Counted from the first letter of the whole stretch, positions 18,876 to 51,822 are shown. The stretch is DNA of 51,822 bases, filler included, from Sphacelaria rigidula (GCA_964200075.2; 3 parts of 3 records of this genome joined end to end with filler, not necessarily neighbours in it); one strand, 5' to 3'. Notes: generated from the letters alone by a model not told the origin. Numbers and translations: made by a program.

Positions 18876-19228
18876 CTTCCGAGTACACACGAGGATAAAA
18901 CGAGGACTGCGTAAGTTTTTCGTTCCTTGTTTGTCACACTCCAGACCCCACTCCCCTTCCTCAGAACGATCTCGGAATGAGTACGTTGTCTCAAGGGACC
19001 AGCCAATCTCTCCCCGGGCAAGGGATACAACAACAATTTGAGGAAACATCTCCGACCGCTTCCTTGTGGGTGAGGGAGGGAGGGAGGGAGGGAGGGAGGG
19101 AGGGGGGGGGGGGGGGGGACCCATTGGTTTCTTGCTTTGGTGGTTTGACCATAAACCGTGCACCCCCCCCGTGCCGGCGCAGGGGGGGGGGGGGGGGGGG
19201 GGGGGGAGTGGGGCGGGTGGGGGGGGGG

Positions 19229-19294
19229 CGTACTCATTTGTTGCTTGCCTTAGTCGTTTGACCAATAACCGTGCATCCCTCCCGTGACGGAGCA
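19229..19294 (-). mobile_element. 5'-truncated 3' tip of LINE family G, in a G-run (degraded tandem copy at 19119-19181)
   Basis: cgtactcatttgttgcttgccttagtcgtttgaccaataaccgtgcatccctcccgtgacggagca matches 50137-50205. Confidence 0.8.
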
Positions 19295-20539
19295 GGAGGG
19301 GCGGGGGGATGCCCGAAAACGTGTTGTTTTTCTCTTCGAGACCTTTTGTCCTTTCACCTGAAGAACAATAACCCCCACCCCCACCCCAAGAAATTATCAT
19401 ATGTAGTTTTTTTCATTTCGAACCTCCAAGATATGAGCGAGTGCAGTTGGTGAACAGCTGGAGCTCTACGCCTAAAAAGACGAGCAAAACTAGACGACTA
19501 GAAAATACGCCGGCGGTCGGAAGACTACATCGCTATCCACCTACGGCCATTCTTTGACTAAGGCCAGCATTTGTTGGAAAAGCCGACCTCTCGCCGAGTG
19601 TTAATGCCGTGCTAGTTGCACCGCATCTCGGCTGCGTATCGACTGCCGGGTCAGAGAAACGGAGGTCAGTACTTCACACGAAAGAAAGCTCGCTGGCGCA
19701 GGGAAATCTGGAGCTGTTGGTTCTTGCTGGCAAATACCGTACAATGAACGCAAAGGACCGTCACATGATTATCGCTAGATTTAGAGTCAAGCGTCGACTG
19801 ACACTCTCATGATTCGTTCTGACTTCACCAGTGTGTGTGTGTGTGTGTGTGTGTTGCCTGCAACAACGCCGTGTACTTCTAGCTACGCGACGAGATCCTA
19901 CTCGGGGATTCCAGAGGCTTCAGAAGAAAGCTACTCCAGAAAGCGTAAACGGACTTGTGAAAGGCCTGAAGGAGCATTTCGGAACTGAAACTGTTTCAGA
20001 CATGAACTCAAACTCTTTCAGGCATAAACAGACCAAATATGGAAATCTGAATTCTTCATGACTGTCGATTGACGAGACCAATTATGCAAAGAAGTGTACA
20101 TTAGATTCATCCCACGGCTGAGAACTTTCACTCCAGCCGCTCCTCGCCTGCCTCGGCGATGAACGGAGTAGCATTTCCTCTTCCTTGAGTTCTCATTGTC
20201 AATCAAACGTTACATTCTCAACCTGGCAAAAAACCCGTTACGTGAGGTTCCATGTTGTGCCGGTGTCGCCCAAGAGACGCACATGGAGTTCCTCCCACCA
20301 CAAGCGGGTCAAGCCTTGAGAATTGTCGCTCGTCAAACAACACGCACCGAAGGCTTACTCCGGCGGCAACCCATGCGGTAAATCACTTCAGCGGCTACGG
20401 CAAAATTTGCATCGGGATCCACACTACTACAGCCATGTACAGCTACTTTTCGGCTGCAAACGCCGGGGGTAGCGTGGCAAACGGGCCATGGTTGATAATA
20501 AATGCACTGCACGGTTTGTGCTTTACACCTGATGAGCGT

Positions 20540-21320
20540 ATCGTAATGATCATACCGTAATAAATTTACTGCACTATTTTTGTTAAAGCTGATCAGCGTA
20601 CCGTAATGATCGTACCGTAATATATGCACCGCACGGTTTGTGTTACAGCTGATAAGGGTACCATAATAAGCATACCGTATTATATGGACTGCAGGGTTTT
20701 TCACAGCAGCACTGCGTTAGGTTGGGGGTTCGCGTGAAGGACAGCTGATAACGGCACCGTAATAAGCGTACCGTATTATATGCATTGCAAAGACGCTCCC
20801 CGTATGACTCGTACCAGTATGGCCCGTACGGACTTTCGCACTGGCCCGTATCCGTACGCCCCCCGAAATTCCTCATCTCATACTGGTGGATACTGGTGAT
20901 ACTGCGTATTTTGGAGTCTGATACTGGCGGATACTAGTAATACTGGGTATTTCACCGCCCAATACTGGCGGATACTGGCGATACTGGGTACTTCGCCACC
21001 TTATTCTGGCGGATACTGGGGATACTGGGTAATTCGCTACCTTTTACTGGACGATACTGGCGATGCTGGGTATTTGGGGGCCGGATACTGCCGGATACTG
21101 GCGATAACGGATATTTTGCCTCCTAATACTGGTGGATACGGGTGATACTAAAATAAACATGTCACAGCCTCGTACGGGTGGATACGGGCCGTGCCCAGTA
21201 TACGGGTACGGGTGATACTGTACTGGATACTGGCGCCGTACGGGATACGGGAGAACATTTGATGCACTGTTCAGTTTTTTACAGCAGCACTGCGTTGGGT
21301 TGGAGGTTTGTGTAAAGGGC
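20540..21320. repeat. ~60-bp taccgtaat tandem array with a nested TIR element (20796-21253) made of gatactgg repeats
   Basis: Host motif acagcagcactgcgtt(a/g)ggttgg recurs at ~20703 and ~21281; insert ends ctccccgtat...atacgggag; ~40-bp internal units gatactggcggatactggcgatactgggta. Confidence 0.7.
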
Positions 21321-21716
21321 TACCGATATGAGCTTCCAGGTCGCGCACAAAACATTGCCAGGCGACATCCTAGGGCTTCGTAGCGAGCCCCAAACAACAC
21401 GGGCCATCGCCCAAAAGCCAGCGAAGCACAACATTCGCCACTGCTCTCATTGCTCTCGTATGCCCATGATAATCGGTGAAGCTTGATGTGTTGTACCGTG
21501 TGATGTTGTCGACGGAGACGGCAGTGACAGGGCAATGATTTCGAAGAGGCTCATCAAAATATAAAGGGGGAGTCATGTTTGACCGCAACCTCGGGATTTT
21601 CGAAAGTTCATTTAATTTCGAATATAATGCCCCCCCGGAATAAGGTGTGGATGGGGATGAGGAACATGCCCAAGCTGTGAGACGCTTGGATGGTAAGTAG
21701 CACTCAGCACTTTATA

Positions 21717-21750
<34 letters not shown>

Positions 21751-21887
21751 AAAAAGCAGCGGCACGTCCCGAAGCTACTGGGTACGAGCTCAGCCAACGT
21801 CAGCGGCCGCATCGAAATCGAGTGAAAAGGAGAGGGGGAAAAGCGGAAGGAGGGCGGGAGGGACACCGGGGGAAACGGACAGCTCAC

Positions 21888-24072
21888 CTTGGTATAAAAC
21901 ATGAGCGATACCCTAAACTTCTTCGTCAACGCCACATCATCCGGGGCCTCCGCCCAGCTTCCCGAGGATGCCAAGGACGTCCGGGTCATCGGTACCCTAG
22001 ACCCGCCCGCGTGCCCTCCCGCTGGCGCCGGTGCTGTCATTCCCGCCCACTTCGCGGCCCGAGGCGGAGGCCCTGCGACCGTCGGAGCGATCGGCGTCCG
22101 ATTCGGGACCTCAGCATTACTGGCCCCGACGCCCGTCAACGCCTCAGAAGCCGCCTTCGGATCCGCGTTTGCCGCGCCGGTGGATGATCGGGAAGTCCCG
22201 AAGGAATCGCCAGACCTCGCCTTATTATTGGCCCCAACGGTCGGTGCTGGCACCTGTTGGGTGACTTCTGACGCCCACCGCGTATCCACCGAGATCCCGG
22301 ACAATAACGCGCCGCTGGCCGCGGCTGCTTCAAGTCCCGTCTTCCCGCCATCTACGCTCTCAGTGCCGGTGCCAGTGCCCGCCGCGCCAGCGGAGGGATT
22401 TTTCATATCGTTGCTGTTAGCTACTCTCCCGGTTACAGCCGCGATACGCTCATAATCGTCGAGGCGAAGCGGGGACTCCCTTGCAACTTCCCCGCCTTCC
22501 GGGTCCCCCCTGGGCGCGGCGGGCTTGGGGTCCGAAGGCATACGGGCAGGGCCGTGAAGCCACGTAGGCACGGATTGCTTTGCCGGGATCTCTGACGATC
22601 TTTCGGCGGTCTCACCGCTGCCTGCACCTGCTGCTTCCGCGGCCACCGCCGCAGCTGGCGTTGCCGCAGGGGCACTCCCACTAGAAATACGGCCAATGCT
22701 GCCGCTGCTGCTCCCCTTCCTCCTTTCTCGTGGACCACCGGAGCTAAGCTTGCTGCCTTCGCTCCGTGAAGACGGGGGAGGTGGCGGCGGCGCCGCTGAT
22801 GGCTCCGGCGGATCCCTCGACCTTCGGCTGAGCCACTTTCCGCCGCCAGCGCCCTTCCTGTTGGGCGTTCTGGTGATGGAACCGTCGGAGCCCAACGGAC
22901 GGACTCCCCCAGAGACAGCCCCGTCTATCACTTTCGGCGTCGCCGCAAAGTGTGCACCGGCGCCGCCGGTGCTCGCGGGGGTGAGAGACGTCTGCTGGAT
23001 GAATCGCGGGGAGTTCCAGCGCCTTATCAGGCGGGATTTCATGGCCATCAGCCCGGTCGACATCGGGGTCCCCGGCAGTCTCTCCCTTGTTCCGTTGCTG
23101 ATGCCGCGCTCGCCGGTGTTACTGCCGCCGGCGCCGGCGCTTCCGCCGAAACCAATTGTGAGAGAATCCCTTGGGGTGCCCGCGATCGAGCTAACGCTGG
23201 GGGTTGAGTTCCGCGGGGACCCCGGAGCGTGCGCGGAGTGCAGCGGAAGCGTCGACGCCGGCAGTGTTTGCGAGAAGTCGCTAAGGGGCGTGGTAGAGGT
23301 AACTATTCCGCCGCTGGCCGCTGCGGCTGCGGCGGCGACCGCGGCGGACGGCGTCCCCGCAGACGGCTCCGAGTGCACTCGCGTATGCGCTCCGTTCGTG
23401 GGCGCCTTGCTGGTTACGCTGCTGACGGCGTCAGTCTTACCTCCGCTTCCCGCCGAGCTGATGCTCCTCGGCCGCGCTGGAGTGCCGCCTCCTGCTTGTA
23501 CTACACCGCCGCCGTGGCTACCGCTGCTGCAGCCGCCGTTACTCTTTCTGTCGACATTAACATACGTCGCTTCCTGCCTGGCGGTCTCCGAATTTGCGAT
23601 TTCGGCATCGACAGTAAGTCGCGTAGCAGCCGGGGCCGCTCGATGATTTTTAGCTCCGCCGGCATTCCCGCCTGCAGCGCGATCTTCGACATCCGACATG
23701 GCACGATTCGCGCGCGCGCTCGACGGCCACGCGCTAACACCAGCAGAACTGCCGCCCCGCGCCGAACCGCGGGAGCTTCGCCCGCCGGTATTATTTCGGT
23801 TGACGCTACGTTGGGTGCTTGGGCGATCCGCCCGGCTTGGGACGGGTGTGCTGCTGAAGGATGGAGGATTCTGTTGGTGTTGGTGTTGGGATTGTGGATC
23901 ATTTGCGATGTTGGCACTCATGGGTATGCCGGGACTGTCGTGCACCGTGCTGCTATCGTCTGTCCATGACGTCGGGATCGTTTGGCGGATCGAGAACGGA
24001 CGGCTGGCGGCTGATGTGGTGGATGTTGCCGGCGATGAAACCGCGGTCATAGTGGTGGTCGTTACACTTCGC
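21888..24072 (-). CDS. Gene A exon 10: ~728-codon Ser/Gly/Ala/Pro-rich disordered region ending in ACBP helix 1 (LTKKFRVSLMFYTK)
   Basis: Inside the 881-aa ORF. Acceptor ccttctccccAG (phase 2) and donor AAG|GTGAGC (phase 0) match both neighbours; GC-rich coding composition. Confidence 0.88.
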
Positions 24073-24813
24073 CTGGGGAGAAGGAGGGCGAATAATTCAG
24101 GCGCGCAGCGACATGGAGGCGACGAGAGGGTGGAGCGGGGGGGGGTTGCACCGACAGGTGTACAATGGGTACGGCCTACGAGTTGACAGCATGATTGTGA
24201 TTGAACAGTCGTGTTGGAAACACTGCTCCTATTTTCTCCTTGATTCTTCCGGATCACACGGCTGCTGCAGCAACCGCGCGTGGTTAATGTTCTCCACGCG
24301 AAGCTACTCGACGCATCAGTTCCGCCGGCTGTATATTCCGAGTATTTTTACAGAGCCGAAGGGGGCGTAGGGGTGCTCAGAGGTGGCTCTTTGCATCATG
24401 CACACAACAAAAAACACAGGGAGTATACCTCTAACATTGCGGGGTACAACAGGGTAAAGGGTGTGTTGGGTAGGATGAATAGGGTATACTCAATTGCGGG
24501 GTACTTTGAAAGTCGTACTTAAAGTACACAAATTGGGGTAGGGTGTTAGGGGTCGCTTTCCAGTTATTTTTTGGGTAGGATTCTCGACACCCTACCCTAA
24601 TTTGAGTACTCAAAGTGCGACTCTCAAAATACTCCGCAATAGAGTATATATCCTACTCGACCTGCCCTTGAAAGGGTGCGTTGGGTAGGATGAATACCCA
24701 GGTATTTCCTCTCACCATATCTGTGTTGTGATGGTCGGATCCAAACTCTACTCGAATATTGGGTAAGGCTAGATAGTAACGGATTACTCTACTCAATATC
24801 TGGGTATCTTTGA

Positions 24814-25172
24814 GTGTGTGTGCTGTCGTCCCGTTTATTCTGGACGCCGGTGTACACCTTTCAGTATATGTGGGCGCACCAGCCGGGGTCACACAGAAGG
24901 AAGGTCAACACAGGAGCTCTTCATTTGTATTTCTTTCCAGTATCCTATCTTCCTTCTGCGGTGTGCTTGCCTTTTTTTTTTATCGCGAGAGGGGTCCAGC
25001 AGTCCCTTTCCCTCGTCGACCGTTGAATCGAATTTTGTGTACCCACGACATAGTCACTGTCCACTGTTGGGCATGGTGTGGGAAAGAATCCCAGATCGCT
25101 CCAAGATTTGAACCCACGACCCAACCGTCAGAGGGTTTCGAGGTTACCAACTGAGCCACCGGGGCGACCGGC
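24814..25172 (-). mobile_element. tRNA-derived SINE family A, full length
   Basis: Minus-strand head gccggtcgccccggTGGCTCAGTTGGtaac...gtgGGTTCAAATCt (Pol III A and B boxes), body shared with the 39408 copy, (CA)n tail; ttgagt occurs on both flanks (possible TSD). Confidence 0.85.
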
Positions 25173-25478
25173 AGTTGAGTACGATCTTAATACTTCACTC
25201 GAATTTTTAGTGCTAAGTGTACGCTTTTTCAAACTACACAAATGTGGGAAATACCCTACCCAAAACACGCTTGAATATAGTACATGATACAGCTGCAGAT
25301 TAGTAACCACCACAGACGCAACTTGCGCGTATCATTGCGATATGCTCAGGTGTCAAATCACTCAAGATATCTGGGCAGCCTACAAACACAACACCCACAA
25401 CATCAAAATCAATAAAGGGGTATTACAGGTACGCTTCGACTTTGCAGGCAGGGTGGTATCAGACTCCTTTTTGCTCAC

Positions 25479-25618
25479 CCCTCTAAGCGAGCGCGTAGCA
25501 CGGCCTCCGATGCGGACGAGATCTCCGACATCCAAATCTTCTTGTTCCACAGGGTTTTGGCGCTCACCATGAACGACTTCTTGGGGTGCTGGATTAAAAA
25601 CTTCGGTCCCCCCTTGTC
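25479..25618 (-). CDS. Gene A exon 9: PH domain C-terminal part
   Basis: DKGGPKFLIQHPKKSFMVSAKTLWNKKIWMSEISSASEAVLRARLEG (strands plus Trp-containing helix). Acceptor ccctgtAG, donor GG|GTGAGC; phase 0/2. This frame is not in the ORF track. Confidence 0.85.
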
Positions 25619-26343
25619 CTACAGGGTGGGGGGGGGAAAAAATGAAGCGTACAGATGAATAATAATAAGGCCGAGGAAGACGCATGGTTCGGGAGAGAGA
25701 ACGTGAGAGAAGGGCAAAAAGAAGAGAAAATATATGTTTACATATATATATATATACCGGGGAAACAACGCATGGTTCAGGCGTTCGTGTATCACGAAAA
25801 GGAAATCTGCTTCCGTTCCTTTTGTGATTCAACTGACAAATTTTAATGTCTGCGCGCATAATGTTGAAACGCGAGGGGGGGCAAGCGAAAAAAACACAAA
25901 AGTACATTAAAGGGCACAAAAAAGCAAAAAAAAAAAAGGGGGGGGGGGGGAAAAAGACACGGATCAACGGAAATCGAAAAATACTACTCCAAACAACATA
26001 CAAGTACAAGGAAGACACAGCCCTTGTCTATACTCCCCCTACCGAGGATGCTTCCTTTTATATGTACAGTATTGTGTGCGGCATTTTTCAGAAAAAAAAA
26101 AAGTCAACCACAAAAGGATTAATATTATAATTTCCGCATTAGTCCGATCTCGCGCACCCGTGGTCACAGATGTAGGCTCGCCTTTTCAATACCGTTTCCT
26201 GCTATTCCTTACAAGACACATTACCAGAAACAAAAATAAGAAGAGAGACGCCACGAAAACCGGTGATGGAAAGGATAATGAGCCGAAAAGCAGGGCTGCG
26301 CTGTCGGTGCTGTTGTTGATGTTAAATACATGCCACTCTTCAC

Positions 26344-26455
26344 CTCCGCGTCGACGACCTTCACCAGGGCGAGGAGCAGCTGGCCGTGCACCTTGTAATC
26401 CCCTGTAAATGGTTGGTGACTCGCATACACGAGCTGATCGCTAAACAGGAAAAAC
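26344..26455 (-). CDS. Gene A exon 8: PH domain middle
   Basis: (R)FFLFSDQLVYASHQPFTGDYKVHGQLLLALVKVVDAE carries the FLFSD motif typical of DH-associated PH domains. Acceptor ctaaacAG (phase 2), donor GAG|GTGAAG (phase 0). Confidence 0.87.
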
Positions 26456-26731
26456 CTGTTTAGCAGGGGTAGAGGAAAAAGATAGAAACAAAAAAAGAGG
26501 GGGTTGACCAAAGAATTTTGTTTTCCCCCACGATTTCACAACGAAAAATTAACCAACCCGCTGCAGTGCATCACGTACGGCATCTACGACCGAAACACAC
26601 AAGAGTACAGTAGTGTTTACCGCTTGGCAGATATTTTTTACTTGATTTGAGTCAAAACACCGACATTCGGATCTTTCGCACGGCTGACAGCCCCAAATGC
26701 CCCTCGCGTACACCAGGTTGATACGAGGGGA

Positions 26732-26784
26732 GCGTACTCATTCGTTGCTTGCTTTAGTCATTTGATCATTGACCACGCCTCCCT
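26732..26784 (-). mobile_element. LINE family G 3' tip
   Basis: gaggggag-cgtactcattcgttgcttgctttagtcatttgatcattgaccacgcctccct followed by a G-rich tract. Confidence 0.75.
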
Positions 26785-27744
26785 AGTGATAGGGGAAGAG
26801 GGGGTTTAGTGGTTCGACTTCGACGGTGCCTTGATGAGCAAAGCTTTCCGAACACTGGAGGCATCCACCCCACATGACTGCCGCGAGGCGGTCTAGGCGA
26901 GCCTCCGGGTCATCGGCACACGAACCCCTTTGCGCGAGGTTTTTCCCTTCCTTCAAAAGGGAGAAAAAGAATAAGGTGTGACATCGACAACTTCGAGAAA
27001 GCCATCCCCTCATTCATGACTACTCCCACGACGAGGAACGCCCGGTCCGCGAGAAACAGCCTGCTGTATCCTTGTTGATTTCTGAAACTATTTTCCATTT
27101 GCAATATCTCGCCTTCTGGGCCATTTTTAATGGCAATCACATGAATATATATGCCGGACAACTACCTATTTTTGGTCATTATGCGACGTTTGCGCACCCT
27201 GGACAATAGGTTACTTTGTTCAGGGTGTAGTCGTTTCACACCCTCAAAGAGCCTCAAAGAGGGAAAGGCGGATCTTAACACCTTGAAGGGGAAAAAAAAG
27301 ATGGTAGAATTAATAAAAATAGGAATAAATAAATGTAAAAAGTGAAAAAATAATCATATTATACAAAAATTAAAAGAAGTTAAAAAAAAAAATGAATAAG
27401 GGAATAAACGAATAAAAAAAAAAAAACAGTAGGAGGCTGAAGGCACCAACGTACAAAGGGACATACACGGACACCATGAGTGCCCTCAAAAACCACAGAG
27501 AGCTCAACCTTTTGTAACGTCATTCGTTTCCAAGATCAACAAGTTAGTGCCGTTGAATATGGTGTATAACACACATCCCAGTGACCCAACAGTGCTATTG
27601 GCTCCCGTCGGATAAACCACACACACCCTACACTGTACTGCAGATACCACTGTAACGCCTACTACAAAAAGCGAGAGCTCGCCACCCCAAAGCTTTAGTC
27701 ACGGAACAGATGGAGGTGATATACCACGCGTACGGATCCTTCTA

Positions 27745-28088
27745 TTTTTTTTTATTCATTCTCATTTGTCGCACTTTTGAGCCCCTCCCCTTCCTCAGGA
27801 CGAATCCGTTGTGTCAGGGGAGCAGGCCATCTCCCCTCGATACACGGCCTGCATTTTGGTCTCCCGGTTTGGATCATGACTATCAGCACTTCCGCACCGT
27901 GTCAACTCTCGTCAAACAAACTCATTCAACTCCTTTTGTTTACACACGTACTAACGCTCGCTTTCAACGGTAGAAATCAGATATACTTGTTAAAGAAGAA
28001 AAACAACGCATCGGGATTCGAACCCTCGTCCTCTCCACCCGAGTGATGACAGTCGGACCATTTTAATTTTACACCACGGGGGCGCGGC
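27745..28088 (-). mobile_element. tRNA-derived SINE family B
   Basis: Minus-strand head gccgcgcccccgTGGTGTAAAATt...gagGGTTCGAATCCcgatgcg; A-rich tail (plus-strand T-run ~27745); body homologous to 34700-34885 (ggacgaatc...gtcaaacaaactca). Confidence 0.7.
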
Positions 28089-28454: not shown

Positions 28455-29011
28455 CAGTAGTGGGCGGTCTAAATATTCATTTTGTGGCATTTTGTGAATT
28501 TTTCGTAACTGGCGATTTTCTTGGGCTCTTTTCGCTTGCCACCGCTCATCACATTGGGGATGTGAAGATATTCGTATCTGCCCCACACTCCGAGAAAGAA
28601 AAAAAACATCTGTATCCAATATTGAATGACTTACGGACTGACCGATCATCGGGGGTCCTGCCACGTTTCAGCCCAGATTCTTATTCTTCGGTATTTTCGG
28701 TGGATTGAGCCTGTCTCAACCAAATTTGTGAAGAAACGTACAGTTTTATTTTCTTGAAATTCCACCTACCTATTTATTGCATTGGAGCCGAAAATCTGTG
28801 TTTCACGGTCAGTAACACCCTCTTGATGAACGGGGTATTTATTCGTATCGCCCGATAACACCACCTAACATTGACTTGGGTATTGTGTTTCGAGGATGAT
28901 CTGTTTTGTTATACCGAAATCTACCGCCGCTAGCAAATTCGAGTTCTATCGAAGAGTAGTACGCGAGGAAAACCCCAAAACCCCCCTGAATAGTTAGACC
29001 GCCCACTACTG
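28455..29011. mobile_element. Tc1/mariner-like MITE (CAGT...ACTG, TA-type flank), copy 1
   Basis: cagtagtgggcggtctaaatattca / tgaatagttagaccgcccactactg; TA on the left, TG on the right; inverted homolog at 36345-36874. Confidence 0.85.
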
Positions 29012-34433: not shown

Positions 34434-34961
34434 CGTACTCATTTGTTGCTTGCCTTAGTCGTGTGACCATTGCGATGGGGGGGGGGGAGGGGGGCCCATT
34501 ACAGCCATGGTACTCGGNNNNNNNNNNNNNNNNNNNNNNNNNNNNNNNNNNNNNNNNNNNNTTAATTAATTAANNNNNNNNNNNNNNNNNNNNNNNNNNN
34601 NNNNNNNNNNNNNNNNNCCCTCCCCGTCTCGAAAGGGTTGCGTTTTTAATGGTCAAACGACCAAGCCAAGCACCAAAACCGCCCGCCCCCCCCCCCCCCC
34701 TCGTTGGGACGAATCAGTCCGTGGAGTCCATGCATCAACTGTCCTACATCTCTCCCCCGGAACACGCCTTGCAATTTGGTTTCGCGGATTGTATTAGGTC
34801 TCACGCACCGCTTCGACTCTGGTCAAACAAACTCAGTCGAACCTTCTCACGTTTTTAACGGCGGGAACCAGATGTTGACTAATCACTTGTCCCGAGAAGT
34901 GGGGGGGAAGGGTGGAGGCGTACTCATTGTTGCTTGCCTTACTATAGTCGTTTGACGATTG
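34434..34961. mobile_element. Cluster of three LINE family G tips (34434-34472, 34621-34678 inverted, 34919-34961) plus a SINE-B fragment (34700-34885)
   Basis: cgtactcatttgttgcttgccttagtcg motifs, each bordered by G-runs (C-runs for the inverted copy). The cluster spans the assembly gap. Confidence 0.75.
34518..34617. other. Assembly gap/spacer
   Basis: 44 N + TTAATTAATTAA + 44 N. Confidence 0.97.
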
Positions 34962-35133
34962 AAGTGGAGGGGTAGGGAGGGGGGGAGCGAGGAAGCCACA
35001 ATCCCCTCTGTCGCTCCCCCTACCCCGTCAACCTACCCCGCCTCGACCATTTATTCCATCATCCACACCGGTTATACGTGGACCACAACTCACAGCAGGG
35101 AGGCTGCCCCATGCCATCCAAGGATTCTCGCAC

Positions 35134-36244: not shown

Positions 36245-36900
36245 CGGTAATGGGCGCCGAAATATTGCAGGTGTCTCCATTAGGGGTAAGAATGGTGCTC
36301 CGTCTCGAAAGGGATACATGGTCAATGGCCAAACGACTATATTGTAGTAATTGGCGCCTGAACTATTTATTGATCACAAGGTTTTTTCTCGCGACAACTC
36401 GTCGATAGAACTCGAAAGTGCTGGTGACGGTAGATTTTGGTAACATGAACAGAGGGTCTTCCCCCCCAGTGCCCAAGTTGGTGTTAGTTGGCTTTATCGG
36501 GCGATACGAGTAGATACGCCATTTATCAGGAGGGTGTTTTTGACCGTAGACAAAAATTTCGGCTCCAATGCAATGAGTAGGTAGAATTACAGAAAAAACT
36601 GTACATTTCTTCGCAAATACGATCGGGACCGGCTCCATAGACCGGAAATACCGAAGAGTCAGATTCTGGGCTGAAACGTGTCAGGACCCCCGATGACCGG
36701 TCAGCCGGAAAATCACTCAATATTGAGTACAGATTTTTGTTTTTTCTTGAAATGTGGAGCGGATACAAGTATATCCGGATCCCCAATGTGATGAGCGGTG
36801 GCAAGCGAAAGAGCCTTAGAAAATCGCTAATAACGGAGAAATTACAAAATGAATAGTTCAGGCGCCCAGTACTGCAAGGCAAGCAACAAATGAGAATCTC
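36245..36900 (+). mobile_element. LINE family G 3' fragment (36245-36339 + 36876-36900) split by MITE copy 2 (36345-36874)
   Basis: ...gtcaatggccaaacgacta|[MITE]|aaggcaagcaacaaatgagaatctcccctccc; the MITE is the inverted homolog of 28455-29011. Confidence 0.8.
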
Positions 36901-41546: not shown

Positions 41547-42959
41547 CTGTGTGTTTGTGCCGGGGAGCGGGTGGGGAGGGAAAGTTGGGGTTGGTGGGGA
41601 AAAGGGGTGGGAGTGGTTGAGAGTGGAAGTGATGCGTGGAGGGTTATTTTTCAGCCTGTGTGATAAGAACTCGTGTAATCGACGATGAAAAAACTGTGTA
41701 ATGTGGGAGGGAGATTCGACACAAAGCTCGACAGAATCACCGCGGTACAGAGAAGGCTGGCTTGACCGAGGAACGGCGGGCAACCATAAAGTTCGCGTAT
41801 CGGGCACGTACGGGCGGGAGACGGGCGTGGCGTTGCCTTGCGATGGGCGCGAAGAAACACGGCCGAAAAGACAGCGTCAAATGACGAGTTTTGTTGGCCG
41901 TACGCGGGCCTGGGAAGAGGTCCGTCCACGATGAAAAACATATTCTAGGGATCGAATATACCCGAGAGCGTGGGCTTGTGCAACGCCATCAATTCAGCCA
42001 GCATCAAACAGGGCGAACCTGTGGGCTACAGTTTGGTGGCGTTCGGGATTTGGCACGCTTCGGTGATGCGACCGTGCAAACAGAGGGGTCGTTAAACGGT
42101 TTCAGCGCTGTCGTGGGGTATCACAATCGTTTTTTCTTTCCGAGCGAGTGCTTCATAGACGGGAACTCTTCTCGTCCTAGCTCGGAGGGATTGCGAACAA
42201 ATATCACGAGCACACAAGCGTTTGTGAAATCAAAATTGGGTTGGGGGGCGGGGGGCGAGGGGCGTGTGAGGGTGGTGATTGCAAGACACATCGGTATAAC
42301 TGGCGCCACCTTCCTCCACAAGAAGAAACGGAGAATACACATTTCGCACAAATATTCCCGCCTTGTTTTCGTAAACCGCGCCGGTTTGGACACGCGTGTG
42401 ATCTTTGTTTGGTACAGGAGCACACTTATCCAACTTGATCTCCATGCGACAATTTTCATGTCGTTTGATGGACCGTCTCCTTGCGCGTGATGAGAGGAGA
42501 AATCACTTCCCCGTCCCGGCAATGTTGTATTCTTGCGTGCGTTGCAGCCGGCAAAACAAGGTATCAACAACGGTTGGCCGCCCCCTTGTTTTGACACATG
42601 TCTGCCTGCACAAGGCTTAGCCAGCAAGTCAGGGCCAACGTTGAGGGCTTCCGTTCGATTTTCTTTCGTATCTGAGCGACGATTGATTTCTCAACACCGG
42701 AGAGCACAACAGCAACAACTACGACACCAGCCCTCCCTGAGCAGAAGATCCACGGCCGGTATTTTTTATGCTTCCCGCTTGCAGGCACTAAAACACCACC
42801 GGCATACGTCACACCGGACACGGACTCGTGTCCCAGCTGAATTCACAACCAGCGACAAATCTTGCAATATATAAATGTTTTTTTTTCCAAGTTATAGTAG
42901 TATTTACTCTCGTCACCGCGATTTCACGCAACGCGCGTTTCTCGAATCACTTCTTCTCG

Positions 42960-43550
42960 CAGTGTGGCTATTGAACAACCGACTCGCACAAGATATTTGA
43001 AAGCGCAACGTGGAAGGAAATCGACAAGCACAGCATGAAAGGGAAACGGAAATAGAATATACAGGGAAACTTCAGGACACCATATAAGTAACACAAGGAG
43101 AACATTGAAGATCTTACGTGAAAGGATACCGGAAACGCACCACACAAGGAAGCTGAAAGTCCAACACGAAAACGAAGATGAATACCTTGCATGTGAGGAA
43201 AGGTGGAGACAGCATGATCGGATTTTGAGCACGCAACTGCAAGGAAAATGACAACTCAACATGGACGGACATTGAAAACGCAACACGGGCGATTGATTTT
43301 CTACAGGACAGAGGACTAGAAAGCCTAGATCGTGACCCTACTTGCACGACGAACACCACACTCCTTACAGAGGACAACAACATGGGCTCGCTTGGGAACA
43401 CTGACAAATTCACGCTGCGAACATGCCATGCGTTTTCGCACGACATCCAACCTCGTCACATCACCTGTGCAAGGTTTGAAAACACACATGCAACGCTGCA
43501 CAGCCACACCAACATTCATGAACCACTCCACCCTTAGACTGCAAGGGTAG
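42960..43550 (+). pseudogene. Decayed retroelement ORF fragment, possibly Penelope-like GIY-YIG region
   Basis: A-rich, stop-riddled frame WKEIDKHSMKGKRK*NIQGNFRTPYK*HKENI loosely resembles the G-x-F-x-T-R-Y-K-E-H segment of GIY-YIG endonucleases; weak. Confidence 0.3.
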
Positions 43551-43926
43551 TCCATCTGGACCATGCACACTTTTTCAAGTTAGTTTGATGCCGATTCAAC
43601 ATATATCCTACTCTCGCTGTCGAAGGGTTAACTCGCATCCCGCACGAAACATACCTCGCCCTTTCCTCTTCACACGGTACCACCCCTTGACCATTATTCC
43701 GCACTGTACAATAGTTTGCATACACCTGATCACTGTAGGATCCGAGGCGACGACTGCAGGAAACATTCTCGGGAAATAGAACATATATATATATATATAT
43801 ATTTAGTGAGAGTTCGAAGTTCGCCCAAGAGACACGTATAGACAAGCAAAACCAACCCACGACCAAAATTCGGACAACGTAGAGGGATAAATATTGCGTA
43901 CCACAGCCCGCACATCTTTTTTACAC

Positions 43927-45054
43927 CTTGAACCTGACAGAGCCGACACTCCGAGGCGAGTTCCTAAGCCTATTCTTTTTCAACAAAGAACTCGCCTGAA
44001 AGTGAGTGCCCTCGATCACCAACCCCGCCGCCGCGTTTCTGTCAGCACGGCTAATGCGGGAGGCGGTGCCAGAGGCGGTGCCAGAGGCGGTGCCGGGCGA
44101 GAGCGGCGCTACCCTAACCGCCTCCCCCCCCCTGCAATCAGTATCTCCCCCGCCATCATCTCCTAACCCCTCAGCAACCAACCCCATGTCTATTACCCGG
44201 CCGTTAGTGCTGGCGCTGCTGCGGTTGTCCTTCATCCTGCTCTCCGAGGCCCCTGACACCTCTTCACATGCAGAGACAGGGAGCGATGATGCCCGAAGGG
44301 GGGAGGCTGGACCCGGAGACGCGGATACAGGGGTAGGCGGGAAGAAGGCCGAGGTAGGCATTTCTTCTTCCTCTTTAAGCCGTAACTCGGCCGCCGCTAT
44401 CGCTTCAGCCTCCGCTTCCGCCGCCGCTGCCGCGGCAGCCTTTGCTGCCGCCGCCTCGGCCTCGGCCTTCGCCGCTGCCTTCGCCGCTGCCTTCGCCACC
44501 TTCACCGCCGCTGCCGCCGCAGCCGCCGCAGCCTGCGATGGCGATAAAGGTGGCGGGTGCCGTGGCGGCTGAAACTTTAATTCCGCCTCCGCCTCCGCCT
44601 CATCAACGGCTGTAGTAGCTCCAGAGAAGCTGCTGTCGCGGCCCGTAGGAGTGACATCGACATCCAACTGCGTGGCAAAGCGCGCGCGAGTCTTCGGAGG
44701 CGGCGGGGTAGGGGAAGCATTGGCGTGCGCGCTGCTTGCGCGGGCGAAAGAGGTCCTTTCGATCCGTGCTGAGAGTGTGCTGACGTTGGTGGAGGGGACG
44801 GCCGCCGAAGAGGTAGTGGCGGAGTTCCACCTGGCGCCGTTGCTGCCGGTGCGGAGGCTGCTCTTGCCCATCGGTGATACGCTGCGCGGACGTGGCAGCG
44901 ACATCCCCTCTCCCTGTCGAGGCCTGTGTATCGTTTTGATTTCGATGGATTGAGGTATGGACACGGGTGATTGGCCGTGTTCGTACGACAGGGGTAGGAT
45001 GTCCAGGGTTAGGTCAGCGGGGAGGTGGTCGAGAGGAGATTCAGGAACGACCAT
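43927..45054 (-). CDS. Gene A probable first coding exon (Ser/Pro/Ala-rich, poly-Ala helix)
   Basis: 376 codons from ATG 45054 to donor AAG|GTGTAA (phase 0). An AG at 45057-45058 leaves open an upstream (UTR or coding) exon. Confidence 0.8.
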
Positions 45055-45063
45055 CGCTAGTAA

Positions 45064-45661
45064 GTAGGATTTTGCTTTTTATGCGCGGATGTAATTTCGC
45101 ATAAAACGGGGTTTTGCGCATTACCTCATGCATTTTTTTGAAACACATGTTTTTGGGGATTTCAGCTTAACAAAGGCATAAACGCTACGTTTTACGCGTA
45201 ACTTGGCGCATACAGTTCTCCAACGGGATTATGCACCCCATGCCCAGCAGCTTGTAGTTGCCCACGGGTGCTCCATTGTGGTGTAGCTTGTCGAGTCGTG
45301 GCGGTTTTGTTCGTAGTGTTTTTTTTTAAACTTTGTTGCGGGTCTGATATCGGCTATTGTGCTGTACTTAAAATACTCTATGTTTATGTGAAACTGATGG
45401 AAAAAATAAATATGTCATATTGCACATCGGACGTAGGCTTTTGCTTTTTATGCGCGTTTTTTTGTTCATGCTGGAAGGTACGTTCCACGAGGGGTGCCGA
45501 AACGAACCGCCTCAAGAAGGATGGGAAAAAAGCGCACAAGTCGTGCATATTTCACCAAGATACGCATCAATCGGCGCATAATTTCCATTTTTGAGCACGA
45601 GAAAAAATGAAAAAAAACGCTTACAAGAGAAAAAAAACGCGTAAAAAGCAAAAGCTTAGTA
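45064..45661. mobile_element. MITE-like element immediately upstream of the gene A ATG
   Basis: gtaggattttgctttttatgcgcg at ~45066 (repeated at ~45433) versus cgcgtaaaaagcaaaagcttag at ~45638-45659. Confidence 0.6.
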
Positions 45662-46615
45662 TAATAGTAAGGGTGTACGAGATAGCTCTGAGGTGCGGAC
45701 CAATACATACTCCAGTCAGACCATTTCAAGGGTCGGACAAAAAATGATTCGTCTGAAAATTACTTGATTTTAGTATAATGAGTCGACTCGTGACAAAGCG
45801 GTCCATAGGCTTTATTATTACAGCGTTGGAACCCAGGTACACGAAGCCCAGACACGTGGAATGGCGCATAAGTTGCGTGGATACCCCTTGGACCAGCGAT
45901 CAATTTATTTCTCCCTTTTGGGCAATCGGGCCGAAGAAATCGTAAATTTGGTGATTTTGAGTCGTGATGATTTGTCCTAACCGTGGACCGTTTCATGTTC
46001 TTCGAAATTTTCGGTTGAGTCAGGCCGGCAGCTACACAGGGCCATGCATCACCAACTACGTCCCGCGAGAGCTTTGCTTCGATATCACCTCGTTCTACTC
46101 TTGTGCGGTACTTGTACCCTCTACTGCGTGTACTGTACTATAGTCTCGTGAGGGGTACGAGCGGTAGGCGGGGTACGTGAACCGATTTACTGTTGTTGTA
46201 GACGTCCACAGGGCAAGAGCCAGAGCGAACATGCTACTCAAGATGCTCATCAGTGACCGCCTCAGGTTCTACAGATGAGCAGCATGCTTGCGAAACGGAA
46301 TAGACGCCAAGCATCTACAGAACCTGCTGTTCGCACGTCTTTCGCGAACCCATACGCCAAGCTCACTACAGAAACAGGCGATGACACGCAGCGTCGGCGA
46401 ATACGTCGCACCAACTTTGAATCATTACCCAGTACAGCACAGAGGTCAACATGCGCAACAGAACCGACTGTACAATTCAGTTGACACGGCTGTGCAGGAA
46501 CACCGCCGCACGACCAATGACTCTCATGAACAAGAGCCCTACACAACCCACAACAATATATAAGTAAACCCTCAACAACTCTAAAGCCATCCCGCTTGCT
46601 TTACCTCTCGGGCAG

Positions 46616-49229
46616 CTCCGGCTTAGAGGACGAGGTAGGCCCGCGCGGGGTAGGGGTCAATGATCTGGTTTGCTGCAACCTTCGGCTGGAGCGATCTCTC
46701 TCCGGGGCACTTTTGGGCGACATGGGGCGGCCGCCGACTATTTCACGATCCTCCCCACAACCGGACATGGCACTAGATTACTCTAGCACCCTGTTATCCC
46801 CGTCCTGGTTCGAGTACAACCCCGCGCTCCGAGCGTCGGCGCGCGCTCTAGTGGCGGCGCTGCGTGCTGATCCTAGAGTGACCGTTGACCTATTTCGGGC
46901 TGTACTAGGGAATCTAAATGAAAGTATTGCTGTGCAGATGGCTTGCACAACGATAAAATGCACGAAGATGATAAGATGCACAAAGGTGACTACAGTGCAG
47001 TACCACGCAGGGGGCTCATGTAAAGGAACCCTCACTGCCTTCAAAGGATGTCTCCTCTGCTTTCTGCAGGTGGCTCTGCGCGGTGCGGCTGTACCACTAC
47101 AGCCAAAACTGTCCAGGATAAACGATGTCCGTTGCGCGCTTGCTCAGCATGGATCGCGGTTCGGTCATGTTTTAAATATGAATGCGTAACCTACGGGTCA
47201 TTATTGAAAGAGAAAATAAACATATTGTCATCATTATCCAAGATCTCGTTCCTGGCGCGTGGCCTGCTCTGTGCGGGTTTCTCTTTCCTGTTTTTGTTTT
47301 CGCTGTCTGGTTGTTTTTATCTCACGTTCACCTTGTACGAAGATCCGCCAGGTGTGTACGAAATCGCTGGGAAGCCGAGAACTGACAGGTGTTAACGTGA
47401 AATGTACATTGGCTCAGAGTCGGGTCGTCTGTGGTCGATTTCCCACCAGTTTGCTCTTGTTCAACACCCATGAAAGTATTCACAGTTCAACTCTGTCACC
47501 AAGATGTGGGTCATACGAGGCCGATGAATTTCTTAGGGCCAAGGAGACATACCCAACCGTGCGAGATCCACCCCGCTAATGCTGAACGGCCGCTAATGCA
47601 GAGAAGCAAGCTCAACAAGCAGGAGTTAAGAAACGACTTTCCCATCCAGAGCTACAAGGTAGGGCAAACCAAACCCCTGAGCGAACAGCCCGTGCTGTTC
47701 TGTACTGCCGTGTACTATACCGCAGTGTGTGTTGTACCGCATGTTGTCATTTATTTAGACCGTCCAGGTAATCCGCAACCCCCCTCCCCCGCTCCGCGAT
47801 TCTCAGCGTCAATATTTGCGTACGTACTCTTCTACACCGCTCCTGTACTCCACGATCCAGGGTCGCCCAATTACATTGAATAGAACCGACATATAACGAA
47901 GAGTTAGATTCATATGATCAAGGACGTCTTCCGCGCCGAAGTGCGAAGGCCTGCTCCCGCGAGCGAGGGCGCTGCCCAACGACACCCGCCTGTCGCTGTC
48001 GAGTGGGAGCACAACCGGCGCCTATGCGCTGCCGTTATGGATGGGCAGCTTCACCTACTCCGAAGGCTTTTGGTAGAAGAGGGCCATGATCCCAATGCTC
48101 GCGATGAGAACGGCAACACTGTAGGACATCAGGTGATTACTTCATGATGTCGTATTTATCGTGGCTGTGCTTGGCTCGACAACAAGCTTGTGGCTTGTCA
48201 GGCGGAGATACAGTATTTATATTTTTGCTGGGGCCACTTAGATTACCGGTCGGTCGTCGACTTTCTCACCTTTGGCGTTAGACAGACGTCTTGACGTGTC
48301 GCGAGTGATGCTACGGTAGGGGCACACAAATATCTTCTGAGGCTAGAGTTGTTAGGAACCCTTCATCTCATCTATAAGACGACTATTTATGAAAATGTGG
48401 GAGAGTACGCCAGGATTACTATTTCAATGTGCCCGGGATATCCCGAATGAATTTGCAAACGGGGATGCCCTCACCAATATTCTTGTCCATCTAGCATCGT
48501 TGGGAGACCCTGAACCAGACAAGATTTTGCGCAAAAAGTGCACCCCTAACGTAGCATTTCTCTCGCGTGCTATGAAACACTCAGCACGCCGGCTGGGCAG
48601 GGAAGCGACGGCCCAGCAAGCCGGAGTATGGTTTGGTTATACCCGAAGCATATGTTTCGTTTCCAACGCCATAGTATACCTCATACGATAAATGTATGGC
48701 ACACGTGCTTTGATAGAACCCCAGTTAGGTAAAGCTTTGGGTACCCTAAGCATAATAGCCTCGACAACGGCGTACTGGCAGCCTCGTAGAGAGCATGTTT
48801 GTGTGTACGAGGGTGATCACGACGTCGACGCTACGAAGAAATAAGCAACAACACGTCACATCACAGAAAAAAATCAGCATCCCCCTGAATATACACAAAA
48901 TTGAGACAGAAAAATTGCGACGGTAATGCTTCTCAGCCCAAGACACTTGGGCATCTAAACGAGTACACCGAAATACTGGTATGCAGAGCAAATTATCTTT
49001 TATTTCGCGCAGGCGGCCACCGACGACGACCACGACGCCCTCGGGCTGCTCCTGTGTCACGGTTGGAACGTCGACGCGGTAAACAACGACGGAGACACCG
49101 CCTTACACTTGGCATCAAAGCACGGCGCGGCAAAGGCGGCTAACGCTCTGGCGGACGGGTTTCCGGACGACAACATCCGAAACCGTCGAGGATTCACGGC
49201 TCTGGATGAAGCCACGAGAGTGGCGACTG
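46616..49229 (+). CDS. Gene B: multi-exon ankyrin-repeat protein (5' exons and 3' end uncertain)
   Basis: Supported exons 47504-47658, 47908-48132 (LCAAVMDGQLHLLRRLLVEEGHDPNARDENGNTVGHQ) and 49013-49229 (AATDDDHDALGLLLCHGWNVDAVNNDGDTALHLASKHGAAKAANALADG...NIRNRRGFTALDEA) join in phase. Probable upstream exons end at 46985 and start at 47070. The last exon may read through to the stop at 49465. Confidence 0.78.
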
Positions 49230-49606
49230 GTGAGCTCGACGGGATGCATTATCGATACGTAACCTGCCTCATTGTCATCAGGATGTATAACGCCGTTTTA
49301 CCGCCGCGGCAACGCGTATCTTGGACTCACACTCATTCAAGCCTCATGTCCTCCGCGAGGTCCTGGAAGTCGCCTTGTGTAATGCTTCATGTACGTCGTA
49401 CCCGATATAGGGAGGACCATCACCATTTGTATCGATCAATACTTGGATTATTGGATTCTCAGTAAGATACTGGACTTTCGGTCTTGAGAACCTAGCATGC
49501 GCGGACATGCGCGTATTAAAGCAGATAGCTGTGATCTTGCCGCTGCTGCCGTCGTGAAGACGAAACCGATGGGAAAAATTACACGGGGATACGATTCTGT
49601 TCGAGA

Positions 49607-49972
49607 TTATATTGATTGCATATAGTAGTATTTGCTGTAAACACCACGACCTCGAAGCAAGAAAGATGCAAGCACACCAATGGACTCGGTAGACTGAAAT
49701 TTATGACCGCCCCCCCCCTCGCCGTACGCGGCCTCCCGCCGCCAGAGCAGATTTTCCTTCATTTGGGCACCCCAAAAGAATGTACCATATCTGATGCCTA
49801 GGTTGATACGTGCTACGTCTCTGTACACAATGCCGTGCTCTCCATCCATTGAGCAATAATCAATCAAGATGATGATCAACATCTGACTGACGATCCCTTC
49901 GTGGTCAGCAGTATAGGCGTTGATCACGTACTGAGTTGAGAACCACTCGGCCTTCTCGAACACGTTCCTCAC
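49607..49972 (-). CDS. Probable 3' exon of a third, convergent gene (unknown product)
   Basis: Acceptor aaacaaacAG then open frame VRNVFEKAEWFSTQYVINAYTADHEGIVSQ... with coding-like codons at the start. Upstream exons would lie beyond the LINE or outside the window. Confidence 0.4.
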   Translation of the reverse strand: MRNVFEKAEWFSTQYVINAYTADHEGIVSQMLIIILIDYCSMDGEHGIVYRDVARINLGIRYGTFFWGAQMKENLLWRREAAYGEGGGGHKFQSTESIGVLASFLLRGRGVYSKYYYMQSI

Positions 49973-50136
49973 CTGTTTGTTTTTGTCTCCTCCTATTCGC
50001 GATCGACCCTTTCAGAAATAGTGACAGGATCACTGCATCCATGATTTTCCCCAAGGGGTTCCGTGAAACAGAAAACTGGCATGGAGGCCTCTGAAACTGA
50101 TTGATATTTGGAGGGTGAATCTTCTGAGGGGGGGGA

Positions 50137-51454
50137 GGTACTCATTTGTTGCTCCCCTTAGTCGTTTGGCCATTGACCACGCATCCCTTTCGAAACGAAG
50201 CACCGTCCCTACTCCTCCTAATGGAGACACCTGCTACATTTCGGTGATCATCACGTTTCTTCCGTACGTTTCACAACCCCCCCTACATACCCTATCCCCT
50301 TTCAAATTCGCCTTCTGTGGCCACCATCTATCTCCTAGTACAGCCTTTGTTTATTTCGCTACTGTCTACATGTAATGCATCAAACGATTTCATGCTACTT
50401 TCATTTACTTCTCGCATTTCCCCCTCCAACACCTCCCGTTCCTCCTTGTATAGTTCACATTCTGTCACTATATAATTTCTACTATATATTGCTTCCCCAC
50501 GAGTCCACTCGGCTACTGGTATATCTCCTCTTTATTCTGGCAGGTCCAGATCCCCCACCCGAAATCGCAGTTCAATTTTCGACGCGTCCATCGAGTCATG
50601 CAAATATCCTTTCATCCCCATCCCCTCTCCCAACCCCCCGTATATCTCTAGGTGTTCTTCCTCGTCTGCTTTACGTCTGAGTGTCCCTTCTCCCCTTTCT
50701 TTGCATCATGTCTCTTACTTTTGTCTTGTACCCGCACCTTCACCTATGGACAATATTTCGTCTTGGTTTCCTCCCATCTCCTTCCATATTCCCTCGACAC
50801 CTCGATCCCACCTTATTCCAGCCAGCCTCTTCGTTATTTTCTCCCGTACAGCCCTATCAACTATGGTTGATAATCTCTTTCTGTGCATGTTCTTTACGCT
50901 ATATTGTCATCGCAATTTCCTCATGTGTCTGTTCGTTTTGAGTGGTTATATTCCCAACTCTGCTCTCAACGCTGTACTACTCGTCGATTTCGAGCACCCA
51001 AGTATCTTCTTAGCTGCTGCAATCTGTACTGTTTCCAACTTCTTCACCAACTTCACGTTCCCCTCCCATACTTCTCCTATATATTCTAGCTTCAGTACAA
51101 CCGCATTCATCAGGATACATATTTTAATTCTAGTATCCACGTGCGAGTCTCTGAGGATCACGTCGATCCTGCCTATCTGTGCCTTACCCTTTTACACTGC
51201 TTTATTTACGCGTGCATCCCAAGAACAGTTTTTTTCACATATTTACGCCAAGCTATGTATACTGGTCCATGGTCGGCAATTCCTCTTCTCCCCACTTCCA
51301 TTTGAACTCTATCGGGTTTTTCTTGTCTTCGTTACATACAAGTACAGCGCATTCGTTTACGTTTGCCATCGCTCTCCATTTCCTAGTGTACTTTAGCACC
51401 TTCTTTATTCTCTTCCGCAATCCTTCTGGTGTTTCTGATACCCCCACGACATCT
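50137..51454 (-). mobile_element. 5'-truncated non-LTR retrotransposon (LINE family G): RT C-terminus to ORF2 stop, pseudogenised
   Basis: Starts in the (YAD)D motif: DVVGVSETPEGLRKRIKKVLKYTRKWRAMANVNECAVLV...YT*LGV...LEYIGEVWEG...LETVQIAAAKKILGCSKSTSSTALRAELGI; knuckle remnant YIVTECELY; ends LGDRWWPQ...GVSIRRSRDGASFRKGCVVNGQTTKGSNK* (stop 50142-50144) then C-run. Confidence 0.9.
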
Positions 51455-51780
51455 GGAGGAGGGGAGGGGCGGAGAATTTGGGAAGGAGGAGGAGGGAAGG
51501 CGGAATCCAGCGAATACTTGCCCGCCCCCAAGTGCCCCTACCGTAGCATCACTCGCCTATGGCCACGCACATGTGAATTACCGCAGGTACGAGTCAGTGC
51601 AAGTCTTGTATCACAGAGTTCACCACGTATGGGAAGCCGGCAGCAATGGAAATCCACGCCAGGGCCGAGCAAGATCGGTTTGAAAAACTCATCAGGAACA
51701 AGGTGTGTGGGCAAGGATACAAGAGAAGGACTTTTTGCGGTAGCCGACCTGCATCAAACGCTTTCCCCCTCCCCCGCCGC

Positions 51781-51822
51781 ATGCTCCGTCTCGAAAGGGA
51801 TGCGTGGTCAATGGTCAAATGA
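51781..51822 (+). mobile_element. LINE family G 3' tip, cut by the window end
   Basis: ccccctcccccgccgc|atgctccgtctcgaaagggatgcgtggtcaatggtcaaatga. Confidence 0.75.

Follow-up and report, generated by a model that had tools for sequence, protein, structure and literature searches.

How does a long interspersed nuclear element (LINE) choose its target and prime reverse transcription when it has neither a poly(A) tail nor more than a few nucleotides of 3' untranslated region (UTR)? The question is raised by 51,822 nt of DNA from Sphacelaria rigidula (GCA_964200075.2), referred to below as the window, which consists of three contigs joined by N spacers (17211-17310 and 34518-34617) with a short TTAATTAA-type linker. 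The contigs are of similar length, and they are separate and do not form one region. On the minus strand from 51453 to 50138, C-terminal pieces of a LINE protein and a reverse transcriptase (RT) thumb end in ...GCVVNGQTTKGSNK*, followed by GTAC (50141-50138) and a run of C. A preliminary description of this DNA had noted a coding-like LINE frame up to its stop, then GTAC and the C-run with no A-tail, and the strand does read this way. We call the element family A and its last nucleotides the tip. As set out below, the C-run is both tail and target, and mostly target.

Flanks were tested in 115 copies with both flanks present, 22 of 137 having been dropped for an absent flank or N. At least seven C occur in the first 10 nt after GTAC in 99 of the 115, against 0.8% of random sites, and a stretch with at least seven C in 10 nt lies no more than 25 nt from the 5' junction in 64, against 3.8%. 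Without selection, in 40 random 10-kb stretches together with the window, the 3' side is C-rich in 35 of 40 cases and the 5' side in 28 of 40, and genome-wide CCCC lies within 2 nt of the tip for 1,681 of the 2,162 exact tips on the forward strand. It had been stated earlier that every 3' junction is C-rich, and every 5' junction save that of a copy placed at 36245; both statements hold, down to the exception, whose 5' junction at 36247 is not C-rich, and the genome-wide enrichment proposed as a check is found far above random sites.

A second set of 39 copies was chosen by the RT region and not by the tip, and was extended into a working consensus. As judged by eye, all 19 that reach the 3' end finish with GTAC and C-rich sequence, and none of these 19 has the poly(A) or longer UTR for which full-length copies were to be checked; the remaining 20 are rearranged or run off a contig end. 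Five or more A within the next 10 nt follow one of 63 exact tips, these being the first listed places with those near contig starts skipped. Among copies from other public assemblies, four of the five full-ended ones end alike, with GA(G/C)TAC-G-C-run, and the fifth, an old one, is C-rich. Tandem arrangements occur, with another tip in 8 of 52 5' flanks, and 24 of 98 runs of at least eight C in 400 kb adjoin a detected copy. Raw reads from other organisms represent chiefly genomic copies carried along in host transcripts, and C-runs occur there behind the tip and ahead of position -65. Note that short C-only loose ends in two read libraries are indistinguishable from library artefacts at G-runs and are uninformative on a C tail.

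An unconstrained scan for target-site duplications (TSDs) let too much through, with 45 of 115 copies at score 10 and 33% in the null, and gave way to anchored tests. A duplication of C-run plus unique sequence abuts the junction in 13 of 104 copies, against 2.2 expected from mismatched pairs (6-mer, one mismatch); with an exact 5-mer the same C-run-first duplication is found 7 times against 0.55 expected, and in a second anchored test in 16 of 46 copies against 2.4%. The duplications are roughly 8-20 bp long and start, on the element strand, at or in the pre-existing C-run.

That the run precedes the insertion is evidenced by paralogous sites, which stood in for the empty orthologous sites whose comparison had been proposed: the C-run is already there and is then duplicated. 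In a chance case, one insertion is matched by three empty paralogues already holding the C-run. A larger sample is provided by a repeat of ~230-260 bp resembling a miniature inverted-repeat transposable element (MITE), with a C-run in each inverted end and 1,747 exact ends, which is a hot spot for the LINE (window 12015-12271; L255-L274). At its end C-run there are 28 insertions, 25 of family A and 3 of a partner, family B, described below; 20 were fetched, and 14 A stubs (copies of about 65 nt) were readable on both sides. Thirteen of these 14 duplicate the C-run, the following A-run and a few more bases, and the MITE then resumes. Unfilled MITE ends carry a C-rich run of 5-13 nt (median 9) in 31 of 31 cases, although 29 of them were chosen with a pattern already holding four C. 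In the fills the 3' C-run measures 5-10 nt in 13 of 14, not longer than the empty run, so that little length is added at MITE sites. Insertions at MITE ends gave 28 and 13 sense matches versus 1 antisense, although with patterns unmatched in length and sensitivity. Finally, a nested copy (L034) has its own duplication, spanning the flank of the first copy.

Besides these two limits of selection and matching, several observations count against the run as target. The antisense MITE insertion holds 7 C where the site has none, so that part of the run is element-derived; some targets have merely 3 C, and extra C's then appear; a few copies (L178, L206 and L202) are without any C-run behind GTAC; and a readable unique duplication is absent in most copies (30 of 46 below score 10). 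Moreover, the position of the nick inside the run cannot be placed from sequence. What results is a preference for short C/G runs, of which 3 C can suffice, and not a strict targeting of long poly(G). The preliminary description had proposed that the family nicks G tracts and primes on a C-ended RNA. Of this the targeting stands, given the C-rich flanks, the C-first duplications and the empty sites with a run, and strict poly(G) targeting does not; a C-ended RNA stays a conjecture, most of the genomic C-run being target-derived. A fixed position in one defined repeat or gene, as in SART1/R1/Tx1-type specificity, is not found either, the targets being any C-run of ~3-20 nt in many contexts, and a few with almost none.

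We consider it very probable that family A is a stringent-type LINE with an APE endonuclease, of the brown-algal RTE-X kind, integrating by an L1-like reaction with G/C for T/A. Its protein, ORF2p, would bind its own mRNA at the folded last 66 nt and nick the G-rich strand inside a G-run or at its 3' side. The freed G-ended DNA would then pair with the C's directly behind GUAC and prime reverse transcription, and a second nick would fall a few to about a dozen bases beyond the run. The C's of the RNA would most likely, if by a small balance, stem from transcription reading through into a genomic C-run (internal priming), and less likely from an added tail. Each insertion would leave two C-runs as new targets, giving rise to tandem clusters.

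The C-run might instead be merely a tail encoded by the element, as (CA)n and (CAA)n tails are, with insertion at random and the C-richness at the 5' side resulting from tandem template jumps between C-tailed RNAs. Such a tail would account for 3' runs that exceed the target run (L223, 14 versus 3 C), for the common tandem arrangements and for the antisense MITE insertion that brings its own run, but it does not explain why empty paralogous sites already hold a run that is duplicated on insertion, nor why the duplication of L034 includes the flank of the first copy. Furthermore, the order expected from jumps, unique sequence, C-run, element, with the 5' C-run added between duplication and element, is not enriched (10 versus 7.1), whereas the order C-run, unique sequence is. 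The encoded tail is thus already largely refuted, and we regard it as very unlikely. Somewhat less remote, yet still unlikely, is the view that the endonuclease has no preference at all and that selection occurs at priming, G-runs (prone to G-quadruplexes or R-loops) breaking or opening alone and a C-ended RNA capturing the G-ended 3' ends. With pairing alone, strand bias and C-first duplications would come out no different, and short runs do suffice; against this stand the regular staggered duplications of ~8-20 bp, typical of endonuclease-dependent insertion as established for L1, and the full APE domain kept in intact relatives. That the G/C runs are artefacts of sequencing or assembly (poly-G, two-colour chemistry) at contig ends can practically be dismissed. 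Many tips do lie near contig ends, two copies of the window among them, but the runs are imperfect, are found mid-contig, are strand-specific to the element and are seen in independent assemblies and runs as well as in a curated near-gapless genome, and their duplication together with unique sequence refutes the notion.

In the window, nhmmer and blastn recovered tips at 50138, 19230, 19119, 26734, 34435, 34623(+), 34920, 36247(+), 36876(+) and 51782(+). The preliminary description had counted about nine tips in 33 kb; all were recovered and the total is nine copies, with 36247-36339 and 36876-36897 as halves of a single split copy that it had listed at 36245 and 36876, but the 33 kb are two unrelated contigs. 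Five of the nine (19119, 19230, 26734, 34623 and 51782) are stubs of ~60-65 nt or the starts of stubs, and the copies at 34623 and 51782 are located at contig ends. The 5' junction of the longest copy, from 51454 onward, is C-rich like its 3' end. The endonuclease-RT open reading frame of the element is abbreviated as EN-RT ORF.

50138..51453, minus strand: 5'-truncated family A copy with the last 1.3 kb of the EN-RT ORF (RT thumb and C-terminal region), 83.9% to the working consensus
50144-50142, minus strand: stop codon of this copy, GTAC directly after it
50138..50203, minus strand: terminal 66-nt domain in the ORF end, common to family B, candidate folded recognition signal, of the same length as the stubs
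50128..50137, minus strand: C-run behind the 3' end (a G-run on the plus strand)
19230..19294, minus strand: 65-nt family A stub with C-runs on both sides
19119..19180, minus strand: degenerate ~62-nt stub, in tandem immediately behind the C-tract of the 19230 copy
26734..26793, minus strand: ~60-nt family A stub (nhmmer/blastn)
34435..34472, minus strand: 38-nt tip copy with C-runs on both sides, near a contig end (nhmmer/blastn)
34623..34684, plus strand: ~61-nt stub at the start of the third contig
34920..34962, minus strand: 39-nt tip copy flanked on each side by a readable duplication, C-run + ACTTC as read on the element strand
36247..36339, plus strand: 5' half of a 114-nt copy, split later
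36340..36875, no strand given: unrelated terminal-inverted-repeat element within the split LINE copy, other copy at 28488-28975
36876..36897, plus strand: 3' half of the split copy, then a C-rich tract
51782..51822, plus strand: start of a 65-nt stub, C-run before it, cut by the window end
12015..12271, no strand given: unfilled copy of the MITE-like repeat, inverted ends with C-run, from the family used for the empty-versus-filled comparison

The inverted-repeat element at 36340-36875 and 28488-28975 is ~535 nt long, with one copy inside a LINE tip. A self-complementary repeat of ~400 nt occurs twice (5872-6268 and 11323-11737), and similar sequence interrupts the LINE copies L035, L087 and L107. 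Host exons, as judged by eye, comprise two low-complexity Ala/Gly/Ser-rich frames and one ankyrin-like frame at 21882-24047 (minus), 43921-45078 (minus) and 48959-49465 (plus); the frame at 21882-24047 has one relative, at 44% identity.

The element as a whole is at least 5.2 kb long, with one long ORF and a ~62-bp tandem array at its 5' end. The 5' end merges into this variable array, so that the length is a lower bound to be set against the 5.5-5.9 kb of the Ectocarpus elements RTEX-1/2_Ec32. The array of ~62-bp units is seen at the 5' ends of L089, L092, L099 and L103 and extends over more than 2 kb in L147 (L147:2937-5373). The single EN-RT ORF of ~1,380 codons occupies consensus positions 1062-5200, in four pieces owing to frameshifts of the consensus at homopolymers, and its stop sits 4 nt before the element end. 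Upstream there are merely a 46-codon ATG-started frame, which follows the array, and stop-rich stretches, with a decayed ORF1 not fully excluded. Fragments diverge from the working consensus by a mean of 10% (range 7-14%), and family A is old; it is dead but very abundant. Exact matches to a 19-nt tip motif number 4,282 in the 244-Mb genome, which is a lower bound on tips, and 40 arbitrarily chosen 10-kb stretches contain 18 copies of family A and 20 of family B, so that ~20,000 copies of both together are extrapolated from 38 in 400 kb.

RVT_1 scores 30.4 bits (cut-off 29.6) in one frame of the broken copy L033, versus 107-117 bits in intact relatives. The intact relatives P0001, P0003 and P0168 hold Exo_endo_phos and RVT_1 within one ORF and align over the whole working consensus (P0001 at 74-86%, its residues 1-550 at 74%), and intact relatives share the last residues of family A and have a CCHC motif at the C terminus. 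An RT domain with an N-terminal APE endonuclease in the same ORF, as defines APE-type LINEs without long terminal repeats, is thus present, and family A itself has the fixed 3' end, variable 5' truncation and TSDs of variable length. Named matches of two protein searches came from Ectocarpus sp. CCAP 1310/34, Sphacelaria rigidula and one entry of a bacterial metagenome-assembled genome (MAG), the last taken to be contamination, and by these LINE relatives the host would probably be a brown alga; searches of a protein atlas returned generic EN-RT clusters alone. Fragments of the family A LINE in bacterial MAG and genome records (L152, L154, L155; P0020) are probably host contamination as well. 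The long copies L078, L084 and L095 carry an internally inverted segment, like the twin-priming inversions that are a phenomenon of L1.

The preliminary description had placed the signal by which the RNA of the element is recognised in the coding end of the ORF. This placement is upheld by the comparison with family B and by the conservation of the tip. Family B is a non-coding sequence of 558 nt without a long ORF that resembles family A solely in the last ~70 nt (52 bp at 82.7% in blastn) and has 2,909 exact tips. The intact tip is predicted to fold into two arms enclosed by a 6-bp closing stem, in which GUGCUC pairs with GAGUAC and which overlaps the stop codon; there is no T-arm. Where this structure is paired, A and B differ at 1 of 42 positions, and where it is unpaired at 12 of 24. 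In the last 66 nt, 62-65 of 66 positions are identical between the consensus and four copies from other sources, versus 45-61 in upstream bins, and of the fourfold sites 0 of 10-11 differ in the last 20 codons versus 11-14 of ~51 upstream, the four copies being related to each other and not independent. Fourfold sites are unchanged through the last 45 codons, and 22-27% of them differ upstream.

These sequence comparisons give good support to a constrained RNA signal at the end of the ORF, though not to one exact fold, and the last 66 nt look like a folded recognition signal. The fold itself faces contrary evidence: the folding z of intact tips is weak, at -0.9 to -1.8; the closing stem, with a probability of 0.99 in the isolated 66-mer, drops to ~0 once 130 nt of context are included, GUGCUC then being contested by an upstream segment; the tip comparisons revealed no compensatory change on both sides of a stem; and the contrast of paired and unpaired positions depends on a structure predicted on A alone and an alignment of A and B made by hand. 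No tRNA or ribozyme match to Rfam was found at the tip up to E = 5 in L149, L143, L123 and L089, and hammerhead and hepatitis delta virus-like layouts, compared by eye with their consensus, did not fit. Distant relatives (P0009 and P0012/P0186, ~40% identity) also finish their ORF with a GCVV.G-like motif, so that the coded 3' signal may be older than the brown algae; one cluster among them has 529 members on long contigs.

For family B, ARAGORN detected no tRNA head and Rfam gave no match at gathering level (L143, L123). The idea that it is a second autonomous LINE was rejected, as its apparent length of 900 nt is due to B lying behind A copies and there is no coding match in B. Its 5' end is a 48-nt direct repeat of its own subterminal region (L123:7423-7980 minus, L118, L128 and L038), and ~95-nt copies, 6 of 46, are maybe recombination products between the 48-nt repeats or else a shorter family.

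The tip of family A is further distinguished by a sharp 5' edge. Among the A copies in the random stretches 11 of 18 start 59-69 nt from the end, and so do 34 of the 63 exact tips, none of which starts at 72-85. A 16-nt motif at -65 of A was followed by hand in its first 100 matches across the genome, of which 59 break off within 11 nt further, 39 continue and 2 are unclear; 32 breaks lie at -65 and 15 at -66, that is 47 of 100 at 65-66 nt. The same motif in B continues in 99 of 100 matches, a number that includes the B head repeat. Reads and contigs from two other organisms display the same -65 edge with C-runs before it, and the edge corresponds to the first bases of the predicted closing stem. 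The stubs most likely derive from an RNA with its 5' end at the base of the domain, be it cut, trimmed to a protein-protected fold or started internally, which would fit a hard edge better than random drop-off of the RT. A precise RNase P-type cut at the first G was considered and gave no clean fit, since 32 of the 59 breaks are without that G (hand count). The tRNA-like end of mascRNA is reportedly processed by RNase P, and nuclease-resistant folds and CCA-ended RT templates provide precedents; these are leads, not tests. The literature searched, with most subscription papers and Repbase outside it, yielded neither G-run priming by a LINE nor a fixed 65-nt stub, and no explanation of exact 65-nt stubs was found.

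It is quite possible, if somewhat less probable than the contrary, that the stubs, instead of being truncations of the LINE mRNA, form a non-autonomous 65-nt family of their own, amplified from a single master locus or a few, or from an internal start site in the ORF end. In favour of this, B is without the edge though it keeps the same domain, a variant at -32 is found in 18 of 71 long copies versus 2 of 46 stubs (p = 0.003, uncorrected over 58 positions), and the synonymous constraint reaches to ~-135 and could be a promoter. However, the stubs showed no derived change of their own, divergence is equal in stubs and long copies retrieved in the same manner (7.6% and 7.4%), and the same edge in reads from other organisms suggests repeated production. 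A more elaborate scenario, which we consider doubtful, takes the last 66 coding nt as a closed domain resembling a tRNA acceptor (GUGCUC/GAGUAC, one unpaired purine, then CC...). A host nuclease would cut or stop at its 5' base, the released 65-nt RNA would stay on ORF2p and be retrotransposed as the commonest product, and the priming C end would maybe originate from tRNA-type 3' processing. If true, the recognition signal, the stop codon and the processing site of this LINE would be one structure, and the LINE would seed its own C/G targets across brown-algal genomes.

Elements of this kind are already on record for Ectocarpus sp. 7. RTEX-1_Ec32 is annotated as 'single EN-RT ORF; (C)n 3'' and RTEX-2_Ec32 as '(C)n termini/TSD' (Dinatale et al. 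2025, PMC12477816, MOESM3), with TSD 'C-rich' and 5.5-5.9 kb for both. The same source (PMC12477816) lists RTEX-N1_Ec32 and RTEX-N2_Ec32 as non-autonomous partners, TSD again 'C-rich', the former of ~605 bp with '60 bp 3' end 83%' common with the LINE and the remark 'can be present in tandem', and counts 16,418 RTE-X copies in Ectocarpus. The target specificity, which the preliminary description did not recognise as a described one, had thus been annotated before. Note that C-rich or poly-C has no match in the main text of PMC12477816, and that its covered parts contain no empty-site test, 3' fold or 65-nt edge, while its figures and FASTA supplements may show more, e.g. terminal motifs in Fig. 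1C. A young RTEX-1 is present in Saccharina japonica (PMC4421812).

Like RTEX-1/2_Ec32, family A has one EN-RT ORF, a C-run end and C-first duplications, its own length being at least 5.2 kb; it differs in residing in another genome and being old there (~10% from consensus). The identity with these families is taken from their description and not from sequence, and the label RTE-X follows the assignment that the paper made by blastp for the families of Ectocarpus. Two protein clusters containing Ectocarpus (1328 and 1340 aa) are close relatives of family A with the same VVNG..T.A end motif. Family B, with its 558 nt and the 52 bp at 82.7% shared with the LINE end, resembles RTEX-N1_Ec32, and differs from RTEX-N1/N2_Ec32, as far as their description goes, in the 48-nt direct repeat of the subterminal region at its 5' end. 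The (C)n 3' end, the C-rich TSD, the single EN-RT ORF and a non-autonomous partner sharing ~60 bp of 3' end are all found, and since every testable feature matches the description of Ectocarpus RTE-X, family A is a further member of a kind already annotated in brown algae. Three things are added here: evidence from empty sites that the runs pre-exist, a signal within the end of the ORF, and the sharp, family-specific 65-nt edge.

In target-primed reverse transcription by L1, a nick at 5'-TTTT/A is followed by pairing with poly(A) (Monot et al. 2013, PMC3649969). Both elements would share a homopolymer-edge nick on one strand, pairing of the freed primer with a homopolymer at the RNA end and a duplication that starts with the run, but L1 has an ORF1, a long 3' UTR and a loosely recognised poly(A), whereas family A uses G/C, its UTR measures 4 nt and its 3' signal is specific. 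No primer end serves L1 on poly(A) worse than a terminal G (PMC3649969). The stringent pairs of LINEs and short interspersed elements (Ohshima 2013, PMC3747384) are similar in that the partner shares the 3' end alone and a 3' fold is the likely recognition signal. In these pairs and in SART1 (PMC7265360), which in addition requires a defined repeat and poly(A), the signal lies in the 3' UTR, while that of family A overlaps the last 20 codons and the stop. Green-algal RTEX elements have tails of (CA)n, (CAA)n and similar, not (C)n.

The (C)n end and the C-rich duplications had previously been on record merely as table entries, and the comparison of empty and filled sites makes of them a mechanism open to testing, in which L1 priming is mirrored with G/C. 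This bears on how the preference of an APE endonuclease may change and on RNA-target pairing as a possible driver of site choice. With intact relatives (P0001, P0003) and a signal of ~66 nt the system is directly assayable, and it is of possible interest for RNA-templated insertion tools. For the genome of S. rigidula itself, some 20,000 copies of families A and B, each doubling a C-run, are a plausible source of a good part of its G/C tracts.

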